From contig NZ_PVUE01000003.1 in NCBI RefSeq assembly GCF_003003235.1, positions 181,150-245,149 of the forward strand: 64,000 nt of DNA, in the 5' to 3' direction. Shown one piece after another: positions 31,042 through 41,532 of the stretch; within the stretch, counting starts at the first letter, position 1; each line of letters begins with the position of its first letter. A program made the translations under genes and the position numbers. The notes under the pieces are model-generated. The model had not been told where the DNA came from. It ran no database searches and saw only the letters and a program-made list of their open reading frames with translations. The stretch comes from Antricoccus suffuscus (lineage in GTDB: Bacteria; Actinomycetota; Actinomycetes; Mycobacteriales; Antricoccaceae).

Positions 31042-31114
31042 GCCGCCTTAGCTCAGTCGGTAGAGCGTCTCACTCGTAATGAGAAGGTCTGGAGTTCGAT
31101 TCTCCAAGGCGGCT
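31042..31114 (+). tRNA. tRNA-Thr (anticodon CGT)
   Basis: Manual cloverleaf: acceptor stem GCCGCCT/AGGCGGC, D-arm GCTC-AGTCGGTA-GAGC, anticodon stem TCTCA/TGAGA with loop CTCGTAA, T-arm TGGAG-TTCGATT-CTCCA. 73 nt; CCA not encoded. Confidence 0.9.
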
Positions 31115-31478: not shown

Positions 31479-32522
31479 GTGAGCACACCAGGACCGGGTC
31501 AGTTCCCGCCGCCAACCGGACCGGGGCCGTCCGCTCAGCGGCAGCCGCCGGCGCCGCAATACGCGCAGCCTCCGGCTGGGCAATCGCAGTCGCCGGGCCA
31601 GAGCGTTGGTCCCGTCGGGCACGCCGGGGCAAAGGTCGCGGTGACGGAGAAGCATGCGTGGCAGGTCAGTGGGTTCCTTGCGCTGGCCGTTTCTTTGGTG
31701 CTGTTTCTGTTCGCTGCTATCGAGCTGATCTTGGCTATTTCCAATGGTTCGGAAGACAAGAGCGTCGCGGGCAACGTCGCGTTGTGCATCATCGCGTTCA
31801 TCCTGGGACTGCTCCTCGCCCGCCCGTTGATCATCATCCAGCCGGGGCAGGCACGCGTGATCCAGTTCTTCGGCCGTTACGTCGGTACGGCGCGACGCAC
31901 CGGGCTGACCTGGGTGATGCCGTTGACGACGCGCAGGCCGGTATCGATCAAGGTGCACAACTTCGAGACCAGCGCCCTGAAGGTCAACGACGCGGACGGT
32001 AATCCGGTGGACGTCGCGGCGATCGTGGTCTGGCAGGTCGCCGACACCGCGAAGGCGACGTTCGCGGTCGAGGATTATGGCAGCTTTGTCGCCGTACAGG
32101 CGGAGTCGGCCGTGCGACACGTCGCGACCACCCATCCGTACGACGACCCCACGGGCAGCGGTACGTCGCTGCGTGGGTCGACCGATCTGGTGTCTGCGGA
32201 GCTCGCTCGTGAGGTTGCCACGCGGGTGTACGTCGCGGGAGTGCAGATCGTCGAGGTGCGCATCAGCCACCTTGCGTACTCATCCGAGATCGCCCAGGCG
32301 ATGTTGCAGCGGCAGCAGGCCAGCGCGATCGTCGCGGCACGTGAACGGATTGTTGAGGGCGCGGTGGGGATGGTCGAGATGGCCGTCAACCGGCTTGAAG
32401 CCAACAGCGTGGTCACCATGGACAACGAACGCAAATCCGCGATGGTGTCCAACTTGCTGGTCGTCCTCTGCGGCGATCAGAAGGCAACGCCCGTCGTCAA
32501 CACTGGTACTTCGGTTATATAA
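31479..32522 (+). CDS. SPFH / band-7 (stomatin-prohibitin) domain membrane protein with Pro/Gln-rich N-terminus
   Basis: N-terminal low-complexity region ([18 protein letters not shown]), one TM, SPFH core, C-terminal coiled-coil-like region. GTG start with AGGAGA 8 nt upstream. Confidence 0.85.
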
Positions 32523-32531
32523 CGGCACAAT

Positions 32532-33218
32532 TCACGTGACCTCGTCTCCTGATTGAAGCTCGGCGAGACTCGCGGCGTGGTCGCATGTCGCGTCCAGCAG
32601 TGGCAAGTCATGGGACGCGACAAGTACGGCGGCGCCCGCGTCCGCGTGAGCGCGAAGCAGCCGCATGATGACCGCCGTCGTTGGCGCATCGAGCATCGCG
32701 GTGGGTTCGTCGCAGATCAGCACCTTCGGATCGAGCGCTAAGGCACGGGCAAGGCATGCGCGCTGGAGTTGACCGTCGGATACCTGGTGCGGGAGCCGGT
32801 CGAGGAGATCGTCGGACAGTTGGACCTGTTCGGTCAGCTGGGCGACCAGCTCGGCGGTGTCCTTGTGCCTCGGCCGCAGCCGGCCGCGGTCGTGCGACAG
32901 TGGCGCGCAGATGATCTGTCGCAATGTCAGTCGACCATCGGTTGATGAGCGTGGCGACTGGAAGACGATTCCTACCTTGCGACGCACGTCCCGTGGTACG
33001 GCGTAGCCAGCGCCGTTCACGGCGGATCCGTCCAGCGTCACGTTGCCGTGCTCTGGGGCAAGTAACAGCGCAGCCGTCTTCAATAGGGTCGTCTTGCCGC
33101 TGCCGGACGGCGCGTGTACGCCGGTGGTCAGGCGCGCGTGAGCGGTGAGGGTTAGGCCGGCGAACACCGGCCGCGGTTCGCCCGGGTAGCGCACCGCGAG
33201 GTCGTCCAGGACTAGCAT
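32532..33218 (-). CDS. ABC transporter ATP-binding protein (DppF/NikE-like, short form)
   Basis: Walker A GSGKTT, ABC signature LSGGQ-like VSDGQLQR, Walker B LICDEPT. Confidence 0.85.
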   Translation of the reverse strand: MLVLDDLAVRYPGEPRPVFAGLTLTAHARLTTGVHAPSGSGKTTLLKTAALLLAPEHGNVTLDGSAVNGAGYAVPRDVRRKVGIVFQSPRSSTDGRLTLRQIICAPLSHDRGRLRPRHKDTAELVAQLTEQVQLSDDLLDRLPHQVSDGQLQRACLARALALDPKVLICDEPTAMLDAPTTAVIMRLLRAHADAGAAVLVASHDLPLLDATCDHAASLAELQSGDEVT

Positions 33219-34150
33219 CGCGCCGCCGAATCACACGCCACGAGATGATCGGCGCCGACCGCGCTCAGCGAGGCGGCACTGCATGACACACCGACCCGCT
33301 GGTGCCACGGGCACACGGCGGGGTGCGGGTCGACGAGCGAGGACGGGGTACCGGGCGGGGGTATTAGGCCGTTCTCGGGTAGCGCGGCCAGCAACGCGCG
33401 CGTGTAGTCGTGCGCCGGTGCACGCAGTGCGACCCTCGCGGGACCGGTCTCGAGAATCTGTCCGGCGTACATCACGGCGACATGGTCCGCGGCGGCCCGT
33501 GCGGCAACCAGGTCATGAGTAATGAGCACGACGGCGGCACCCCGATTGGCCTGATCGCGCAGTTGTCGTCGGACCAGCGCGGCGGTGTCCGCATCGAGCG
33601 CGGACGTCGGCTCGTCGGCGACCAGGATGGTCGGTTCAAGCGCGCAGGTGAGTGCGATGAGCACTCGCTGTGCCATCCCACCGGATACCTCGTGTGGGTA
33701 ACGCCGCGCCGTTTCCGCGTCCAGCTCGACCGTCCGCAGTAGATGAGCGATATCGATCGGTCGCGCTGGGAACCCATGTATAGCAAGAGACTCGGCCATG
33801 GTCGAGCCGATGGTGCGTACCGGGGTGAGGTGCGTGGCCGCGGACTGCGGGATGAGTCCGACGCCGCGCCCGCGCACGTTGCGCAACTCGGACTCGGTAG
33901 CGGCGAGTACGTCGATGTCCCGGGCGAAGATCGAGCCGCTGGTCTGCGTCCCTGCCGGAAGCAGCCCCATCGCCGCGAGTGCGAGCACGGACTTGCCGCA
34001 GCCGGACTCTCCGACGATCGCGGTAATCGAGCCAGCATGGAACGGCAGGCTGATATCGCGGGCGGGATACACCCAACGCCGTGGTGTACCTGGAAGCGGT
34101 ATTCGGATCGACAGGTCGACGAGCTCCATACCGGTGGCTGCGCTGCTCAT
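33212..34150 (-). CDS. ABC transporter ATP-binding protein (DppD/NikD-like)
   Basis: Walker A GESGCGKS, signature VSGGMAQR, Walker B LVADEPTSALD. ATG 34150 with GGAGGTGA SD. 4-bp overlap with the upstream permease. Confidence 0.85.
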   Translation of the reverse strand: MSSAATGMELVDLSIRIPLPGTPRRWVYPARDISLPFHAGSITAIVGESGCGKSVLALAAMGLLPAGTQTSGSIFARDIDVLAATESELRNVRGRGVGLIPQSAATHLTPVRTIGSTMAESLAIHGFPARPIDIAHLLRTVELDAETARRYPHEVSGGMAQRVLIALTCALEPTILVADEPTSALDADTAALVRRQLRDQANRGAAVVLITHDLVAARAAADHVAVMYAGQILETGPARVALRAPAHDYTRALLAALPENGLIPPPGTPSSLVDPHPAVCPWHQRVGVSCSAASLSAVGADHLVACDSAARC

Positions 34151-35103
34151 CGCGTCACCTCCGCCTCGATCGCGCGCTTCGGAATCGACTTCTCCCGCAG
34201 TCTGCCGCCGAGTCCCGCTACGGCGAGACAGGCCGCGGTGAGAAGCGCTGCCGGAAACACCAGGAGCCACCAGCCGCCACCGAGGATGCCCTCTCTGGCG
34301 TCCTCGAGCAGGGTGCCGAGCGACGGGTCGTTCGGTGGCAGTCCGACGCCGAGAAATGACAGTGCGCTCTCATGCCAGATGGCGTGCGGAAGTGTGAGTA
34401 CGACCGCGAGCAACGCTTGCGGTACGACGGCCGGGATTAAATGGGTGGCCCAGACCTGTCTGCGGGAGGCGCCGGACACGACGGCCGCGGCAACATGCTC
34501 TCGGCCGCGCAGAGACAGGATTTCCGAGCGGACGATGCGCGCGATCTGGGTCCAGTGAGTGATCCCGATTGACGCGACGATAGCCCACCACTGGCCGCGC
34601 CACAGTGACGCGATCACGACGCCCAGCAGCAGGTGAGGAAGTGAGTTGAGTGCGTCGACCGAGCGCATAACGAATTTGTCGACCAGGCCGCCAAACGCGG
34701 CCGCCAAGGTGCCGACCAGTACGCCGAGCACCGTGGAGAGGACTGCGGCCGCAGCGGCGAGGAGCAGCGAGATCCGTAGCGCCTGCGCGCAACGCACGAG
34801 AAGGTCCCGGCCGAGAAGGTCGGTGCCCATGAGATGGGCGCCGGACGGCACCTCGAGATACGCGCCTAGGTCGACGACGCGGGGGTCGGTGTCGCTGAAC
34901 GCAGGAACGACGATGCAGTAGATGCCGAGCACCACCAGAGTGAGCACACAGATCGTGACTGTCCGCCGTCCGGTCGGGCGCTTCTGACGCCGGTCTCGGG
35001 GCCAGCCGGTGACTGTGCGCCACGTGCGATCGGTGACGGTCCGGCCGGCGGCGTGATCGGCCACGTCGTACCGCGGATCTGCGACGGTCTGTTTGTCAGG
35101 CAT
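34147..35103 (-). CDS. ABC transporter permease (DppC/NikC-like)
   Basis: Six TM segments and an EAA-like loop typical of BPD_transp_1 permeases. Confidence 0.85.
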   Translation of the reverse strand: MPDKQTVADPRYDVADHAAGRTVTDRTWRTVTGWPRDRRQKRPTGRRTVTICVLTLVVLGIYCIVVPAFSDTDPRVVDLGAYLEVPSGAHLMGTDLLGRDLLVRCAQALRISLLLAAAAAVLSTVLGVLVGTLAAAFGGLVDKFVMRSVDALNSLPHLLLGVVIASLWRGQWWAIVASIGITHWTQIARIVRSEILSLRGREHVAAAVVSGASRRQVWATHLIPAVVPQALLAVVLTLPHAIWHESALSFLGVGLPPNDPSLGTLLEDAREGILGGGWWLLVFPAALLTAACLAVAGLGGRLREKSIPKRAIEAEVTR

Positions 35104-36133
35104 CGTCGACCCTCGGATCTACCAGCACGTAGAGGGCGTCGGCGAGCAGCGACCCGATGAGCACCATCAGGCAAGTCAGCACCGTGACGGCGGCGAGGAG
35201 CGGGAAGTCGCCGGACACTGCTGCGTCGACGGTCGCCGCGGCGAGGCCGGGCCAGGCGAATACGGTCTCGACGAGGACGGCGCCCGTTACCAGCTCGGGG
35301 AGTCGTGCGCCAATGACCGTGACGAATGGTAGTAACGCTGCGGGAAGCGCGTGGCGCCACACGGTCGTTCGGTCAGGAAGTCCGCGCGCGCGGGCAGCGG
35401 TCACGTGATCCTCGGTGAGGGCGGTGATCACCGACGTACGAATGTTGAGCAACAGCCACGGAACCTGCGAGAGGCCAAGAACCGTTGCGGGAAGGACGAT
35501 ATGGATGGCGATCGAACCCCACGTCGGGTCCGCTCCACCACGCGACACGCCGGCGACTGGCAGCCATCCCAGGGCAAGCGAGAAGACTGCGACCGCGCCC
35601 AGCGCGATGACAAACGGCGGTATTCCCTGGACAAGGTGTGCCAGTCCGGTCGCGAACCTATCGATCGTAGAACCCGGACGACGGGCCGCGCTGACGCCGA
35701 GCACGAGCGAAATCCCTACGCCGAGGGCGATGCCGACACCAGCGAGCATCAGGGTCCACGGGAGCCGCTCTGAAAGCACCTCGGCTACCGGACGGGACAT
35801 CGACCTCGAGTAGCCCCAGTCCCAGTGCAGTACGACGTCGCGCACCCACCGTCCCCAAATCGCGATCCAGGCGTCGTTGATACCCAGCTCCTCGGCGAGC
35901 GCGGCGCGTTGCTCGATGCTTACCCGCTCGAACTTCGCTCCTAGGTACGCCGCGAGCGGGTTGAACGGCGCGATCGATGCGAGCCAGAAGACGACCATCG
36001 ACACGAAAGCCGTGATCGGAAACGCGACCGCGGCACGCCAGCCTGCGAGCTTGGCAGCCTTCGTCCATCGCGCGCGAGATTGCCAACTTGGCGGTGGTTG
36101 AGACGCCTTTTCGGCGGTAGCGAGATCTGACAC
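35096..36133 (-). CDS. ABC transporter permease (DppB/NikB-like)
   Basis: BPD_transp_1 permease architecture. 8-bp overlap with the next permease. Confidence 0.85.
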   Translation of the reverse strand: MSDLATAEKASQPPPSWQSRARWTKAAKLAGWRAAVAFPITAFVSMVVFWLASIAPFNPLAAYLGAKFERVSIEQRAALAEELGINDAWIAIWGRWVRDVVLHWDWGYSRSMSRPVAEVLSERLPWTLMLAGVGIALGVGISLVLGVSAARRPGSTIDRFATGLAHLVQGIPPFVIALGAVAVFSLALGWLPVAGVSRGGADPTWGSIAIHIVLPATVLGLSQVPWLLLNIRTSVITALTEDHVTAARARGLPDRTTVWRHALPAALLPFVTVIGARLPELVTGAVLVETVFAWPGLAAATVDAAVSGDFPLLAAVTVLTCLMVLIGSLLADALYVLVDPRVDDA

Positions 36134-36136
36134 GGA

Positions 36137-37756
36137 CTACTTCTTCGGGGTCCACTTCTCGATGTTGACCCACGGTCCCCACGCCGTACCATGCTCGTGC
36201 GGTTCGAGAATCGTCTGCGTGCCATTCCACGCTTCAGTCACGGATTTCAACTGAACGTAGGTGTGATCGACAAAGACGAGCACGACCATTGAGGGTTCGG
36301 CGAGGTAGATGTCCTGCACCTTCTCGTAAGCCGCGACCCGGTCCTCTGTAGTCAGCGATGTGCGGCCGAGGTCGAGGGCCGCGTCCATGTCGGGATTGGC
36401 GTACTGGCTTGGATTGTCGTAGTAGGCGCCAGCGGCCGGGTAGGAGGAGTGCAGCATGGAGTACAGCTGCGAGTCGACGTCGTACGGAGTGTCGCCGCCG
36501 CCCAGCATCACCGCGTCCTTGTGGATGCGAGGCTCCAGTACGTCGAAGCCTTGACCCTCGATCGACACGTCGAAGCCGGCCTTGAGTGCCTCGGATGCGA
36601 ACGCGGCGGACAGATCCTTACGCAGTCGGTCTTCGGGCTTGTACATAACCGTGAACGCGGCGCGGACGCCGTTCTTGTGCCGAATTCCATCCGATCCCTC
36701 GATCCAGCCCGCCTCGTCGAGCATCGACTTCGCCTTGTCGAGCTCATACGGGAATACTGCGTCTTCGGAGTAATAGTCGACGTACTGTGGCGGAATGAAC
36801 GTCGAAGCGATGCGGCCGTACCCCATCAGCACGCTGTCGAGCATCGCCTGACGGTCGACGGCGAGGTTGAGCGCCATCCGAACTGCCGGGTCGGAGGTGA
36901 CCGGGTTGTCCAGTGGCAGCGAGATTCCGCGCCAGTCGGCGGATGTCGCGGCAATCACGTCGACTGCGTCGGACTTCTTGAAGTTGGCGGCGAGTCGTGG
37001 TGGCAGAACTGAACCGTCGTACTCACCGGCGGTCATCTGCTGAGCGCGAGTGTTGTCGTCGGCGGCCAGAACGTAGGTGACCTTCTTGACTGCGGGTGCC
37101 CCGTCCCGGAATCTGGCGTTGGCGGCGTAGACCAGTTTGCCGTTGGAGAAGGACTCCACGACGTATGGACCGGTCCCGATCGGCTTCTGGTTGAGCGCTG
37201 ACTCCTCGACCTTCTGTCCGGCAACGATCGCGCTCGCCGGTGCGATCCCGACAAGGAGTTTGGTCGGGAATGCGACGTACGGGATATTGAGGGTGAAGAC
37301 CACAGTGGCCGGGTCGGGCGCCTCGATGCCGGCCAGCATGGAGAGGTCGCCGGCGATCGGCGAGGCCGTCGCCGGGTCGATGATCGCCTTGTACGTCGCG
37401 ACCACATCGTCGGCGGTCAGCGGCGTACCGTCGGAAAACGTGACACCCGAGCGAATTTTGACCGTCCAGGTCTTCGCGTCCTCGGACGGCTCCGGTGGAC
37501 TCGCTGCCAGTTGAGGCACAAGGTCCGGCAGGTCGTTCGGCTTTGCCTTGAGGGTGAGCAGTCCCTCGTTGATCTTGCCCATCCCGTTGCTGTCGGCACC
37601 GGCGATCGGGTTGAGCGTTTCGGGGAGGAGCGCGGTGACCAGTGAGAGGGAAGCAGAACGACCGCCGCCGCCGGTCGTCGGCGCAGAACATGCGGCCGCG
37701 GCGAGCGCGGCACCCGCCGTGCCGATGAGGAAGAGTCGTCTGCTGAATTCGGACAC
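36137..37756 (-). CDS. ABC transporter substrate-binding lipoprotein, family 5 (DppA/OppA/NikA-like)
   Basis: Tat-like RRLFLIGTAGAALAAAAC signal with lipobox Cys, followed by a family-5 SBP domain. GTG start with GAAGG SD. Confidence 0.85.
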   Translation of the reverse strand: MSEFSRRLFLIGTAGAALAAAACSAPTTGGGGRSASLSLVTALLPETLNPIAGADSNGMGKINEGLLTLKAKPNDLPDLVPQLAASPPEPSEDAKTWTVKIRSGVTFSDGTPLTADDVVATYKAIIDPATASPIAGDLSMLAGIEAPDPATVVFTLNIPYVAFPTKLLVGIAPASAIVAGQKVEESALNQKPIGTGPYVVESFSNGKLVYAANARFRDGAPAVKKVTYVLAADDNTRAQQMTAGEYDGSVLPPRLAANFKKSDAVDVIAATSADWRGISLPLDNPVTSDPAVRMALNLAVDRQAMLDSVLMGYGRIASTFIPPQYVDYYSEDAVFPYELDKAKSMLDEAGWIEGSDGIRHKNGVRAAFTVMYKPEDRLRKDLSAAFASEALKAGFDVSIEGQGFDVLEPRIHKDAVMLGGGDTPYDVDSQLYSMLHSSYPAAGAYYDNPSQYANPDMDAALDLGRTSLTTEDRVAAYEKVQDIYLAEPSMVVLVFVDHTYVQLKSVTEAWNGTQTILEPHEHGTAWGPWVNIEKWTPKK

Positions 37757-37802
37757 GGGTAGCCTTCAGGTGGGGAGCGAGTGACGGTTTCCGACACTAC
37801 CT

Positions 37803-37828
37803 CACATGTGTTTAACAAGACACATGTC
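37803..37828. promoter_or_regulatory. Candidate ArsR operator: two CACATGTG boxes forming a perfect inverted repeat ACATGTGT-N8-ACACATGT
   Basis: Read directly: 8-bp arms at 37804-37811 and 37820-37827. Each half contains the self-palindrome CACATGTG. The site lies between the divergent ABC importer operon and the arsR-family gene. Confidence 0.6.
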
Positions 37829-37839
37829 GTGCTGGATCG

Positions 37840-38217
37840 TTGGCTGAACGCGAGGATGACGTGAGTGCGGAAAACGAGAGACCAGGCGACATCGCCGCAG
37901 ATGCAGTGAACAGCAGTAGCGCCGCGATAAGCGAATGGGTTGGCACGTTTGAGCTGTTTGCGGATCCGACGCGAATGAAGATTCTCATCGCCGTACATGC
38001 CGCGCCCGAGGCCTCGGTGTCTGAGATCGCCGCGGCTACAGGGATAACCCCTAACACCGTGACGCAGGCCCTCGCGACGCTACAGGGTGCGCACGTAGTT
38101 TCGTGCCGCAAGGACGGCCGCTACCGCCGCTGGCGGCTCAGTGACGATGCGGCGCATCAGGTGTTGCACCACATGAAAGCGCCACACACGCAGCTGCACC
38201 CCGACCACGACACCTGA
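37840..38217 (+). CDS. ArsR/SmtB-family metalloregulator with His-rich C-terminal tail
   Basis: HTH core (LFADPTRMKILIAVHAAPEASVSEIAAATGITPNTVTQALATLQGAHVV). C-terminal HQVLHHMKAPHTQLHPDHD suggests an alpha5/C-terminal-type metal site. TTG or GTG start. Confidence 0.8.
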   Translation: MAEREDDVSAENERPGDIAADAVNSSSAAISEWVGTFELFADPTRMKILIAVHAAPEASVSEIAAATGITPNTVTQALATLQGAHVVSCRKDGRYRRWRLSDDAAHQVLHHMKAPHTQLHPDHDT

Positions 38218-38340
38218 TGCCCGACCGAGCGTCGTGAATTGAGCACGTCAACCGAAGTTTGTCGATGCGCTGCAGGAAAAATTCGGCATCGACCTCTCCG
38301 CTCTCGATGGGATGGAAGCGTCGATCAAAGAACTCCTGCT

Positions 38341-39519
38341 CTAGACGAGCGACCCGATCGGGAGCTCGTCGCCGAACATGTGCGTCGTAAACAGCTCGGC
38401 ACTCGTGTCCTGATCGAACACGACGTGCCCGCTGCCGGTGTTGATGTCCCTGAGCGCACGCTGCAGTGGGGAGTCGAGGCGATGTGCGCTGGCGCCGCTG
38501 CCGGCGACCAGCTCGGTCACGACGCGGCGGCAGACACCGACGACCCACGCCACCGTCCAACGGATACGCACCCGCTCGGCGAGGTCCGGCGGCGGCGCAC
38601 CATCTCGTACGGCGTCCAGCCGCGCGACGGCATCGTCGAAGGCGAGGGTCGCCGCGTGCAGCTCCGCAGTAGCGTGTGCCAGCCGCAGTCGGGCACCGGG
38701 CACGTCGCGCTGCTTCGTGCCGGGCGAGTAGGTCATTACCCGTTCGCTGAGCCGTGCCCGATATGCCTCGAGCACACCCTCGGCGATCCCGAGCAAGGGT
38801 GCGGCGGCGCCCAACGCGAGCACAGGGACCATCGGCCAGCCATATATGGGATCGCCGTACGGCGCCGCCACGGCCGGTCGTGCCTCGCGGATGGTGCCGA
38901 GCCGGAACGCGCGATCTTCGGGAACAAGGAGTTCCGCGGCACTGACGTCATCACTGCCCGTGGCACGCATGCCGTCGGTGTGCCACGTGTCGTGTACGAC
39001 GACGTCCTCGGTGGGCAACAGGAACAGTCGTACGTCCGGTGGTCCGTGACCATCGGGTGGCGGGATCATTCCGCCGGCCATCACCCACGGACCGTGATGT
39101 ACGCCGGTCGCCCACGACCAGCGGCCGGTGAGTCGGTAGCCGTCGCCGTCAGCGACCGCCTTACCGTTCGGCGCAAAAGGCCCTGAGGCCAAGGGCATCG
39201 GGTCGTTGGCGAACAGCTCCCTGACGGTGGCGTCCGGCCACAGCGACAGAATCCACGCGTGCAGGCCGAAGAAGCTCGTTACCCATCCCGTCGAGCCACA
39301 TCCGCGGGCCAGGATGCGCGCGATCATCGTGTGCGTGCGGTAGTCCAGCTGGTGGCCACCGAGCTCCCTAGGCACAAGCGCGCTCAGCAGCTCGGCTTCG
39401 CGAAGATCTGCGATCGTCTCGTCAGGAAGGGTGCGGCCGCGTTCGGCGTCGTCGGCGCGCTTGGCGATGACCGGGACGAGGGAAGCGGCACGGTCGATCA
39501 GTTCGGCTGATGTCGTCAT
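38341..39519 (-). CDS. Acyl-CoA-dehydrogenase-fold flavin-dependent monooxygenase (DszC/HsaA/SfnB-like)
   Basis: ACAD-like fold without the catalytic Glu context of true ACADs. Similar in size and pattern to group D flavin monooxygenases. ATG 39519. Confidence 0.65.
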   Translation of the reverse strand: MTTSAELIDRAASLVPVIAKRADDAERGRTLPDETIADLREAELLSALVPRELGGHQLDYRTHTMIARILARGCGSTGWVTSFFGLHAWILSLWPDATVRELFANDPMPLASGPFAPNGKAVADGDGYRLTGRWSWATGVHHGPWVMAGGMIPPPDGHGPPDVRLFLLPTEDVVVHDTWHTDGMRATGSDDVSAAELLVPEDRAFRLGTIREARPAVAAPYGDPIYGWPMVPVLALGAAAPLLGIAEGVLEAYRARLSERVMTYSPGTKQRDVPGARLRLAHATAELHAATLAFDDAVARLDAVRDGAPPPDLAERVRIRWTVAWVVGVCRRVVTELVAGSGASAHRLDSPLQRALRDINTGSGHVVFDQDTSAELFTTHMFGDELPIGSLV

Positions 39520-39675
39520 GCAATGCAGTGCATCACGGACACGACTCGTCCCACAATGGGCTAGTCGCCGGGACATTTAACAACGCCGATAATGCTCCCA
39601 GAGCCGACCGTCGCCAGTCTCTCAGGCATATTGGGTTCCGTTCTCGCAATACCCGCCGGGACGTGGGAAACTTGA

Positions 39676-40467
39676 ATGATGCTCGACCGGGAATCCAAGA
39701 CCATGGTCGCTGGATTTAGCCGTCCCGCACCAGATGGCCACGATCGGCCGGCGCCGACGTATCGGGAGCACACCGAGGTGGCCCGACCGGATCTCATTCG
39801 CTGCTGGTGGACGCATAGATTGCCGCCGCATAGCGGTGCCTCTCGGATTCTTCCCGATAACTGTGCGGATCTAATTGTCCGGGACGATGGCGCGGCGTGG
39901 CTCGTAGGGCCGGCTACCGGACCAGACCTTTTCGAGCTCGAGGGCCGCTTCAACTTGCGCGCGATCAGGATCAACCCGGCCGCTCTGGCCACGGTGACCC
40001 GACTCGACGCCGACGAGCTCGTGGATCAGCGGCTGGGCTTCGGCGAGATCTTCACGCCGTCCGTGGCGCGGGCCTTGACTGACGCGGTCTGGGCCGTTGA
40101 CGAGCACACCGTACGCCGGATCTTTGCCGACAGGGAAGCGATCCCGTCGCTAGCCGAGGGATTCCGGATGCTTGAGTGTCATCCGGGTCAGGACATCAAC
40201 CGAATCGCCGAGCGGCTCGGGCACTCGCCGCGCAACTTTCGCCGGCTGATGAAAAGGAACGCCGGTCTCGGGCCAAAGACGATCCAGCGAGTGAGCCGGT
40301 TCAGGTCGTTCCTTGATGCGGCCGAGCGTGCCGGTGACGTGGCATCGCTTGCGGGACTGGCATTCGCGGCCGGGTACGTCGACCAAGCGCACCTCACGCG
40401 CGACTCGACTGCGCTGAGCGGTCTCCCTCCGCGGGCACTACTCGTCGAGCGGTCGTCAGGTCGCTAG
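39676..40467 (+). CDS. AraC-family transcriptional regulator
   Basis: C-terminal AraC-type HTH pair (INRIAERLGHSPRNFRRLMKRNAGLGPKTIQRVSRFRSF ... AGYVDQAHLTRD). Confidence 0.75.
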   Translation: MMLDRESKTMVAGFSRPAPDGHDRPAPTYREHTEVARPDLIRCWWTHRLPPHSGASRILPDNCADLIVRDDGAAWLVGPATGPDLFELEGRFNLRAIRINPAALATVTRLDADELVDQRLGFGEIFTPSVARALTDAVWAVDEHTVRRIFADREAIPSLAEGFRMLECHPGQDINRIAERLGHSPRNFRRLMKRNAGLGPKTIQRVSRFRSFLDAAERAGDVASLAGLAFAAGYVDQAHLTRDSTALSGLPPRALLVERSSGR

Positions 40468-40501
40468 TCGACGACGTCGCGATGATTGGCAGGGCACAGA
40501 C

Positions 40502-40973
40502 TCACAAGTCGCGGGTGAGGGTGGCGCTGAGGTGGTGGGTGAGCGGCAGGCCGACCGCGGCCATGCGCACGTCGTACCGCAACACGTCGCCGTCCAGGAT
40601 GAAGTCGCGCTCGGTGGCGGTGACGTCCTTCGCCGTACTGGTGCCGTGCACGACCGTCGATCGCAGCCACACGCCGGACCCATCAAGCGTCCCTTCGAGT
40701 ATCTCCACGATGCCGAACGGGTGCGCGAGGACAACCTCGACCTGGCCGGCCGAGGGCAGCCGCCAGTAGCCGGTCTCGGCATGCATCGGCAGCCCGTCGG
40801 GATTGCGCGTCTTCTGTGCGTAGGCCAGGAATGGCTTGCCGACGTGGCTGAAGGTCACGGACTCGACGTACTCGAACGGCTCAATCGTCGGATACTCGCC
40901 TTGGCCTGGACCGGACCAAGTGCCAAGAAGGTGCCGAAGCGGTTCAATACCTGGATGCAGCTGCGGAGTCATG
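40502..40973 (-). CDS. Nitrobindin / THAP4-like heme-binding beta-barrel (FABP-like, DUF1794) protein
   Basis: Pattern [21 protein letters not shown] ... typical of the nitrobindin family. ATG 40973. The 57-aa N-terminal extension in the ORF track is non-homologous. Confidence 0.6.
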
Positions 40974-41007
40974 ACTCGACTGTCCCACATCGTCGTAGTA
41001 GCGGAGC

Positions 41008-41532
41008 GTGTTGGAAGATAGAAGCATGCCAGAGCAACAAGTCGTCGTACGCCGTGCACACACGCGAGACGTCCCCACCATCCGTCACATCGTCGAACCA
41101 CTTTCGGATGCGCGTGTACTTGTCGCGAAGGAAGCTGTCGCATATTACGAGAGCTTGCAAGAATTTCGTGTCGCCGAAGTCGACGGCGAGATCGCTGGAT
41201 TCGGTGCGCTGCACGTGATGTGGGAAGACCTCGCCGAAGTGCGCACGCTGGCTGTGTCGAAGGATTTTAAGAGCAAGGGCGTTGGCTCGATCCTTCTGGA
41301 GCACTTACTTGACGACGCTCGAGAAATCGGGGTCGACCGGGTCTTCTGCCTGACGTTCGAGATCGAGTTCTTCACCCGGCACGGATTTATGGAGATCGAA
41401 GGTACGCCGGTCGAGCCGGACGTGTACGTCGAACTGCTGCGCTCGCACGACGACGGTGTCGCGGAGTTCCTGGACCTGGCACGGGTCAAGCCCAATACGC
41501 TCGGCAACTCGCGGATGCTGCGCCTGCTGTAA
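41008..41532 (+). CDS. argA: Short-form amino-acid N-acetyltransferase (GNAT), resembling the mycobacterial single-domain N-acetylglutamate synthase ArgA (Rv2747)
   Basis: Recalled similarity to the Rv2747-type short NAGS along the whole length (VVRRA-T-DVP-I, QEF-VAE, GALHV-W-DL-E-RT-AV, RVF-LTFE-EFF-RHGF-EI-GTPV, VAEFLDL-VKPN-LGNSRML). Divergent from the nitrobindin-like gene with a 34-bp gap. Confidence 0.6.

Follow-up and report, generated by a model that had tools for sequence, protein, structure and literature searches.

Regulators of the ArsR/SmtB family are the textbook sensors that leave the DNA when a toxic metal is bound and thereby switch on its export or sequestration. Among them, the actinobacterial Ni/Co sensors NmtR and KmtR of Mycobacterium tuberculosis carry His-rich sites on or near helix α5 and in the C-terminal tail, bind inverted repeats at promoters, from which they are released by Ni/Co, and thereby regulate a P-type ATPase and a CDF transporter, both of them exporters. 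The α5 Zn sensors CzrA and SmtB regulate exporters or metallothionein. Other folds are used where a metal acts as co-repressor of nickel uptake, namely the ribbon-helix-helix fold of NikR and the Fur-type fold of Nur. AdcR and ZitR belong to the MarR family and are winged-helix repressors of Zn importers with Zn as co-repressor; their activating Zn site consists of a His in α2 and an HxxxH pair in α5. SrnR of Streptomyces griseus is an ArsR-family DNA binder in Ni-dependent repression, but it requires the Ni-binding protein SrnQ and regulates sodF, not importers (PMC11672702). Here, a locus of Antricoccus suffuscus is described in which a gene for a His-rich ArsR/SmtB-family regulator (arsR) is divergent from a five-gene ABC importer that resembles nickel uptake systems. 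It lies in a stretch of 64,000 nucleotides (assembly GCF_003003235.1, contig NZ_PVUE01000003.1, positions 181,150 to 245,149), which is called the window and to which all positions of this locus refer.

In the window, arsR is located on the + strand and starts either at a TTG (37840) or at a GTG (37861) and ends at 38217, which results in a protein of 125 or 118 amino acids, respectively. A spacer of 83 bp separates it from the importer genes on the - strand (32532-37756), the identities of which, like that of arsR, were checked with Pfam and NCBIfam models. The first of them encodes a NikZ-like family-5 substrate-binding lipoprotein (SBP) of 539 amino acids (36137-37756; SBP_bac_5 in Pfam, 1.2e-80) and is followed by a NikB/Opp2B-like permease (35096-36133) and a NikC/Opp4C-like permease (34147-35103), both with a BPD_transp_1 domain, a NikD-like ATPase (33212-34150) with ABC_tran and oligo_HPY domains, and a NikE-like ATPase (32532-33218) with an ABC_tran domain. 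The first permease starts 3 nt past the stop of the SBP gene and the following junctions consist of overlaps of 8, 4 (ATGA) and 7 nt; the five importer genes are translationally coupled. For the NikD-like ATPase the open reading frame extends to a GTG at 34270, which would create an overlap of 124 nt with the upstream permease. Because the ATG at 34150 forms an ATGA stop/start overlap with the permease stop, this is probably the true start. A GAAGG sequence is found 8 nt ahead of the GTG start codon of the SBP, which carries a lipoprotein signal with the lipobox AAAAC at residues 19-23. For arsR, the GTG start is used in the annotation of a 99%-identical protein of Antricoccus suffuscus, and the homologues P0002 and P0003 begin with M-AERE at the position of the TTG. 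The importer-divergent arsR and all genes listed in the first-pass annotation of this DNA could be confirmed at their coordinates with Pfam, NCBIfam and the sequence itself.

The regulator and the importer were found to be strictly paired. Related loci were fetched (29 loci, 581 kb in total), corresponding to 26 distinct loci from Antricoccaceae, Micrococcaceae, Ornithinimicrobium and metagenomes, and the pairing was observed in all 26. The six-gene module is present in the genera Antricoccus, Cumulibacter, Ornithinimicrobium, Glutamicibacter, Paeniglutamicibacter, Arthrobacter and Kocuria. A genome scan with the regulator alignment yielded 22 loci (Cumulibacter, Glutamicibacter, Paeniglutamicibacter, Arthrobacter spp. 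and Kocuria polaris), in which the SBP was 53-78% identical to that of the window. All five transporter orthologues were divergent from the regulator in 21 of these loci, and the remaining one (L019), which lies at a contig end, retained the SBP and both permeases beside the divergent regulator. The divergent layout could also be identified in Ornithinimicrobium faecis, in a metagenomic relative and for P0027, a regulator with 47% identity. In Glutamicibacter sp. M10 (L021, 8254-9761), the SBP orthologue matched in two frames (9761-9192 and 9195-8254), indicating a frameshift that is due either to a pseudogene or to a sequencing error.

The spacer between the divergent genes contains a perfect 8+8 inverted repeat, in which ACATGTGT (37804-37811) and ACACATGT (37820-37827) are separated by 8 nt. 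This inverted repeat is far beyond chance: even when 3 mismatches were allowed it was the sole match in 64 kb, with 0.05 matches expected by chance, and at least one match was obtained in 5 of 100 shuffled sequences. The distance from the end of the right arm to arsR is 12 nt for the TTG start and 33 nt for the GTG start, and on the importer side the left arm starts at a distance of 47 nt from the start codon of the SBP. The first-pass annotation had reported a palindrome at this place and its distances to both start codons, all of which proved correct. It had further described two self-palindromic boxes, which holds for the left 8-bp box CACATGTG (37803-37810) but not for the right one, which reads CACATGTC (37821-37828); the 6-bp palindrome ACATGT is common to both.

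When 23 spacers were aligned in register, the family consensus T-ACAT-s-TGT-y, N6, r-ACA-s-AT-G-w was obtained, with 11 invariant positions (A1, C2, A3, T4, T6, G7, T8, A17, C18, A19 and T22) and flanking columns of mostly <0.7 bits. On the basis of conservation and uniqueness, the 26-bp inverted repeat with 10-6-10 architecture at 37803-37828 was assigned as putative operator. Each of the 29 loci contained a single copy of the pattern ACATNTGT-N8-ACANNT, in every case located in the spacer that separates arsR from the importer, and no further copy was found on either strand of the 581 kb. Binding of the regulator to the inverted repeat is predicted, as the repeat is found in the spacer of all loci and co-varies with the recognition helix (see below). 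A scan of 37650-37950 for E. coli-type sigma-70 promoters and terminators found nothing, and the -10 region of the importer was therefore assigned by eye as a TANNNT sequence. This putative hexamer, TAGTGT (37794-37799, - strand), abuts the left operator arm. The A at 37799 of the + strand (motif position -4, four bases left of the repeat) was invariant in 23 loci. In the Micrococcaceae, this position and the first two bases of the operator are part of a TANNNT hexamer on the importer strand. As the operator lies over or beside the TANNNT sequence, a bound protein would be expected to occlude the importer promoter.

The arsR product belongs to the ArsR/SmtB family, as it scored 61.9 bits on the model NF033788 (cutoff 55) and matched Pfam HTH_20 and HTH_5 above the gathering scores. 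An AlphaFold2 model with a pLDDT of 86 has the topology α1-α2-α3-α4-β1-β2-α5 followed by a coil tail (helices 15-39, 43-54, 60-67 and 71-83, strands 87-92 and 95-100, helix 103-111). Foldseek matched this model with a probability of 1.00 to YgaV, SmtB, NolR, CzrA and CadC, and HMMER placed the regulator likewise; CzrA and SmtB were its best matches in the PDB in both sequence and structure. Six His residues and the recognition helix NTVTQAL were invariant in 21 homologues. H53 (codon 37996-37998, + strand as for all following) is located at the C-terminal end of α2, H106 (38155-38157) and H110 (38167-38169) lie one turn apart on α5, and H116 (38185-38187), H120 (38197-38199) and H123 (38206-38208) are found in the tail, the end of which, HQVLHHMKAPHTQLHPDHD, had been quoted correctly before.

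No conserved Cys was present in the regulator clade or in the wider subfamily; the single Cys of the window protein, C89, is not conserved and many members lack Cys. An As(III) or thiol sensor of the ArsR, CadC, CmtR or BigR/SqrR type was therefore rejected. A canonical α5 Zn sensor was rejected as well, because the α5 motif DxHx10Hx2(H/E) is not present. HMMER aligned D102 with D84 of CzrA and H120-P121 with H100-P101, while A104 and T117 take the places of H86 and H97; the segment from α5 to the tail is two residues longer than that of CzrA, and D102 is variable in the family (D, H, S or N). Of the resemblance to the α5 and C-terminal sites of NmtR and CzrA that had been suggested earlier, only D102 and H120-P121 remain. 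In comparison with CzrA and SmtB the regulator has the extra invariant residues H53, H106 and H110. With NmtR and KmtR it shares the family, the fold and His residues on α5 and in the tail, but the genes next to it encode importers instead of exporters, the NmtR-type motif DxHx10Hx2H is not present, and the subfamily profile matched NmtR only at E=6.7e-5. The ligand pattern of AdcR and ZitR resembles H53 combined with H106xxxH110; the family and the dimer architecture differ and the profile and Foldseek hits to these proteins were weak.

The closest solved relative of the SBP was CcNikZ-II (8EFZ; 208 bits, E=1.6e-60), followed in order by the Ni binder YpYntA (4OFL), CjNikZ (4OET) and E. coli NikA (various structures). 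Matches to non-Ni binders scored far lower, with <=84 bits for haem binders and ~115 bits or less for peptide binders; opine binders were present as well. CcNikZ-II binds Ni(II) with micromolar affinity and independently of a chelator (bioRxiv 10.1101/2022.10.03.510666); its site consists of a variable loop, a conserved Arg and a double-His prong with the sequence GHHG. The Arg of the ligand site (R379 in CcNikZ-II, R344 in CjNikZ) is kept in the SBP within EDRLRKDL (375-382), which is aligned with DEVRVKM in 8EFZ, and none of the orthologues lacks this Arg. At the position of the prong, the window SBP and 21 orthologues share an invariant LEPH[E/D]HGT (517-524), and the loop LNP[IL]AG.D..G.GK (48-61) is conserved in them. 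His residues at the putative prong position and a variable loop after LNP would be common to the SBP, CcNikZ-II and CjNikZ, whereas the prong itself (LEPHxHGT vs GHHG) and the loop (AGADSNG in the window SBP vs TEDKYT) differ. From these sequence comparisons it seems plausible that the SBP is of the NikZ type. Nickel models were the best or near-best NCBIfam match for four of the five importer proteins, all of them below cutoff; scores and cutoffs outside the SBP were 223/350 (Opp2B), 171/335 (NikC), 187/319 (NikD) and 135/333 (NikE). The NikC-like permease scored higher on the oligopeptide model Opp4C (208.5 bits), which like Opp2C remained below cutoff, and the NikD-like ATPase scored higher on the glutathione model GsiA (258.6 bits).

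A profile search of the full library showed that the regulator belongs to a small family, in which about a dozen clusters at 50% identity carry the whole tail. H53, H106, H110 and H116 were invariant across the wider subfamily. P0038, the only member seen without H53, also lacked H106 and H116, and this joint loss may hint that the three residues are part of one site. The neighbours of the subfamily members were judged on informative contigs, as many others were too short. P0034-like regulators were divergent from CbiM-PDGLE-CbiQ-CbiO ECF importers in 8 distinct loci (one of them co-directional). In another 8 distinct loci, P0035-like and P0033-like regulators either were divergent from a gene for a NicT/HoxN (NiCoT) permease or immediately preceded it. 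This permease carries the signature RHAFDADHI. It scored 550 bits on the NicT equivalog NF052500 (cutoff 450), and with 362 bits it also exceeded the cutoff of 333 for the HoxN/HupN/NixA model. One subfamily defined by its His pattern is linked to three unrelated classes of Ni/Co importers, and this linkage suggests that Ni/Co are sensed and that uptake is the regulated process.

The distant members of the subfamily, the named ones of which come from Nakamurella, have the recognition helix NA[AT]SHAL in place of NTVTQAL, and the operator CATCGG-N10-CCGATG, or CATCTGCGCATCTGTTCCGATG, is found ahead of their transporter genes. Divergent CbiM and NicT loci have the operator CATCGG-CTCAGACGwT-CCGATG, and in co-directional loci the variant CATsTGCGCATCTGTTCCkATG is located between arsR and nicT. 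Since the distant members differ in both the helix and the operator, the recognition helix and the operator co-vary. In two loci (L030, 182-2726, and L031, 216-1441), two His-pattern ArsR paralogues of 142 and 121 amino acids are arranged in tandem before NicT, with the operator variant CATGTGCGCATCTGTTCCGATG between them. NicT is followed by a Cys-rich open reading frame of 117 amino acids (MVTICRGCCCGTKRKHPDTDHD...) without a match in Pfam or NCBIfam. On two further, related contigs (L052, 1594-2832, and L050, 606-1874), an MFS transporter (PF07690) without a His-rich tail, possibly a Ni exporter like NreB, is encoded ~140-300 bp downstream of the regulator; NicT is divergent upstream in one of the two.

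It is proposed that the locus would constitute a self-contained acquisition module for nickel, possibly cobalt, together with a dedicated and dimeric regulator of the ArsR/SmtB type. The regulator would bind the 26-bp inverted repeat (37803-37828), which lies over or beside the -10 of the importer and just upstream of arsR, and because of this position it is suggested to repress both divergent units, the importer and arsR itself. The His cluster of H53, H106, H110, H116, H120 and H123 would form a sensory site unlike the canonical α5 site; with six imidazoles as ligands, this site would match the octahedral coordination of Ni(II) or Co(II). The metal-bound form would then occupy the operator, so that uptake would be switched off at Ni/Co sufficiency and released upon starvation. 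Such a role would be like that of NikR or Nur and would reverse the classical allostery of the ArsR/SmtB family. With NikR and Nur the regulator would have in common the shut-off of nik ABC, NikMNQO-type ECF and NiCoT importers at Ni sufficiency and an operator that overlaps the promoter, although the folds are unrelated and the co-repressor mechanism is only predicted here.

The metal is taken to be a co-repressor because the controlled genes encode high-affinity importers, and to our knowledge high-affinity trace-metal importers, including the characterised Ni uptake systems, are always repressed by their own metal. In Streptomyces mirabilis, Ni repressed the NiCoT gene hoxN 6.3-fold, and this gene made the cells less tolerant to Ni. 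DNA binding at the operator, metal binding, the identity of the metal and, most of all, the sign of the response are inferred here. That a Ni/Co-responsive regulator controls the adjacent importer is considered probable. For the complete proposal, a Ni/Co-sensing repressor of the importer with the metal as co-repressor, we lean slightly in favour; the co-repressor sign is favoured on the physiological argument. Only tentatively, and a little short of an even chance, the subfamily is put forward as the founding ArsR/SmtB case in which the metal-bound form is the DNA-binding one, with Ni(II)/Co(II) as co-repressor, a six-His site from α2, α5 and the tail, and three importer classes as targets. 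The first-pass annotation had considered a His-rich ArsR/SmtB sensor that controls a Nik-type importer via the palindrome, and this view is supported, as both the module and the operator are conserved. Its option of Ni/Co uptake is favoured here, as the nearest relatives of the SBP are Ni(II)-binding and of the NikZ type and the subfamily flanks ECF and NicT/HoxN importers.

Several observations weigh against the proposal. In the AlphaFold2 model the tail that carries half of the His residues is of moderate confidence only (pLDDT of 74, falling to 53). At the prong of the SBP one residue separates the His residues (H-[E/D]-H instead of GHHG), in a stretch that aligned with low posterior probability, and NikA, the best NCBIfam match of the SBP, was matched with 141 bits, far from the cutoff of 393. 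A gene for a Ni- or Co-dependent enzyme was not visible in the 64-kb window. The linkage to importers is furthermore not universal. In 4 near-identical contigs (L061, 6848-9500; L062, 6848-10207; L063, 3585-6000; L071, 6833-9447), a Cys-free His-pattern ArsR precedes arsM-ACR3-arsC, which encode an ArsM-like methyltransferase, an ACR3 carrier of the SBF family and an LMWPc arsenate reductase, and no operator of the CbiM/NicT type could be recognised between arsR and arsM in these contigs. Because it lacks Cys, this protein is excluded as a standard As(III) sensor, despite its place beside these genes. An orphan His-pattern arsR (L076, 7384-8408) lies directly after three tRNA genes; neither a Ni/Co transporter at a distance of up to 8 kb nor a match to the operator was found. 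Finally, according to a recent review, effector binding uniformly inhibits DNA binding in the ArsR/SmtB family, and no ArsR controlling uptake is among those described (PMC11672702, 2024). A co-repressor sign is without precedent in the family save for the partner-dependent SrnR/SrnQ pair, and the match of SrnR to the subfamily profile was weak (E=0.008) and confined to the winged helix-turn-helix region.

Following this family precedent, the apo-protein would sit on the operator, binding of a metal at the His site would release it and expression of the importer would be metal-induced. This metal would be Ni/Co itself, with uptake limited by separate exporters, or a competing metal such as Zn or Cu, an excess of which raises the need for Ni. 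This alternative is considered unlikely, even though all characterised family members work in this way (PMC11672702). The α5 remnants D102 (D84 of CzrA) and H120-P121 (H100-P101) would fit such a mechanism, and a divergent, autoregulated layout is typical of pairs of ArsR and its effector. However, two of the four canonical α5 ligands are missing (A104 and T117) and new invariant His residues are found instead, and the conserved six-gene module contains no exporter. Metal induction of high-affinity Ni/Co importers, and this of three kinds, would in addition let a toxic trace metal enhance its own uptake by positive feedback; we know of no metal-induced high-affinity uptake system for a trace metal of such kind.

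Quite improbable is a second alternative, according to which a non-metal ligand or the imported cargo (a peptide, a metallophore complex, histidine or haem) would be sensed and bound by the His residues, and the ABC system would import peptides, opines or haem. The ligands of family-5 SBPs are very diverse, none of the importer proteins reached the cutoff of a nickel equivalog, the PDB matches include peptide, opine and haem binders, and many ArsR proteins are not metal sensors (PMC11672702). Against this, the Ni binders are by a wide margin the nearest to the SBP, the subfamily flanks CbiM-type ECF importers and NicT, of which Ni/Co are the only known substrates, and no metallophore biosynthesis genes are conserved near the module. 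Known non-metal ArsR sensors use Cys pairs (PMC11672702), and none is conserved in the regulator. With six conserved His and no conserved Cys, the non-metal signal that had been left open in the first-pass annotation is not favoured. A peptide, opine or haem importer was rejected, because the SBP is far more closely related to the Ni binders and the subfamily is tied to CbiM and NicT.

A ligand-independent or partner-dependent repressor, in which another protein would deliver the metal signal as SrnQ does and the His tail would be an interaction or buffering motif, is similarly doubtful: SrnR needs SrnQ for Ni-dependent repression, some ArsRs have no inducer sites (PMC11672702) and the tandem paralogues before NicT hint at hetero-oligomers in some lineages, but no partner gene is conserved with the module across the 26 loci, and four to six invariant His residues, including H53 in the DNA-binding domain and lost together with H106 and H116 in P0038, are better explained by a metal site.

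The module is surrounded by housekeeping genes, with topA, tmk, holB and a tRNA gene upstream and ppa, dacB, hpt, ftsH, folE and folP downstream. The tRNA gene (31042-31114) sits after holB and a gene for a PSP1-domain protein. Past the tRNA gene (31479-41143), an SPFH-domain gene, the nik-like module, a gene for an HsaA-like flavin-dependent oxygenase (38341-39576, - strand), a gene for an AraC/DUF6597 regulator (39676-40467, + strand) and a further open reading frame are found. Neither flank of the module was common to any other locus, and the SPFH, oxygenase and AraC genes were shared with no related locus examined. Regulation of the HsaA-like oxygenase or AraC genes by arsR was rejected, because neither gene is kept in any other locus. 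The unshared flanks are compatible with an insertion of the module beside the tRNA gene, though no compositional anomaly was found around the six genes. An Rfam scan of the whole window identified only a single tRNA, and a B12 or NiCo riboswitch is therefore not present in it.

Neither an ArsR-family regulator of Ni/Co uptake nor a description of this subfamily could be found in the open-access literature. New are the sensory site, the class of target genes and possibly the allosteric sign, while the types of protein and transporter involved are already known. The subfamily probably controls metal uptake, an undescribed role in a family known for switching on export. A subfamily dedicated to importers would imply either that the allosteric sign is inverted on this small scaffold or that uptake is controlled by a feed-forward mechanism as yet unseen for trace metals. 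The two operator motifs would be available for the prediction of regulons, and the SBP would add an H-x-H variant to the metal-binding sites of the NikZ type, which is of interest for the engineering of metal capture. If the proposal is true, the regulator fills the role of NikR or Nur in several actinobacterial lineages, and it would name the missing regulator of Ni uptake in Antricoccus, Cumulibacter, Nakamurella, Glutamicibacter, Paeniglutamicibacter and Ornithinimicrobium.

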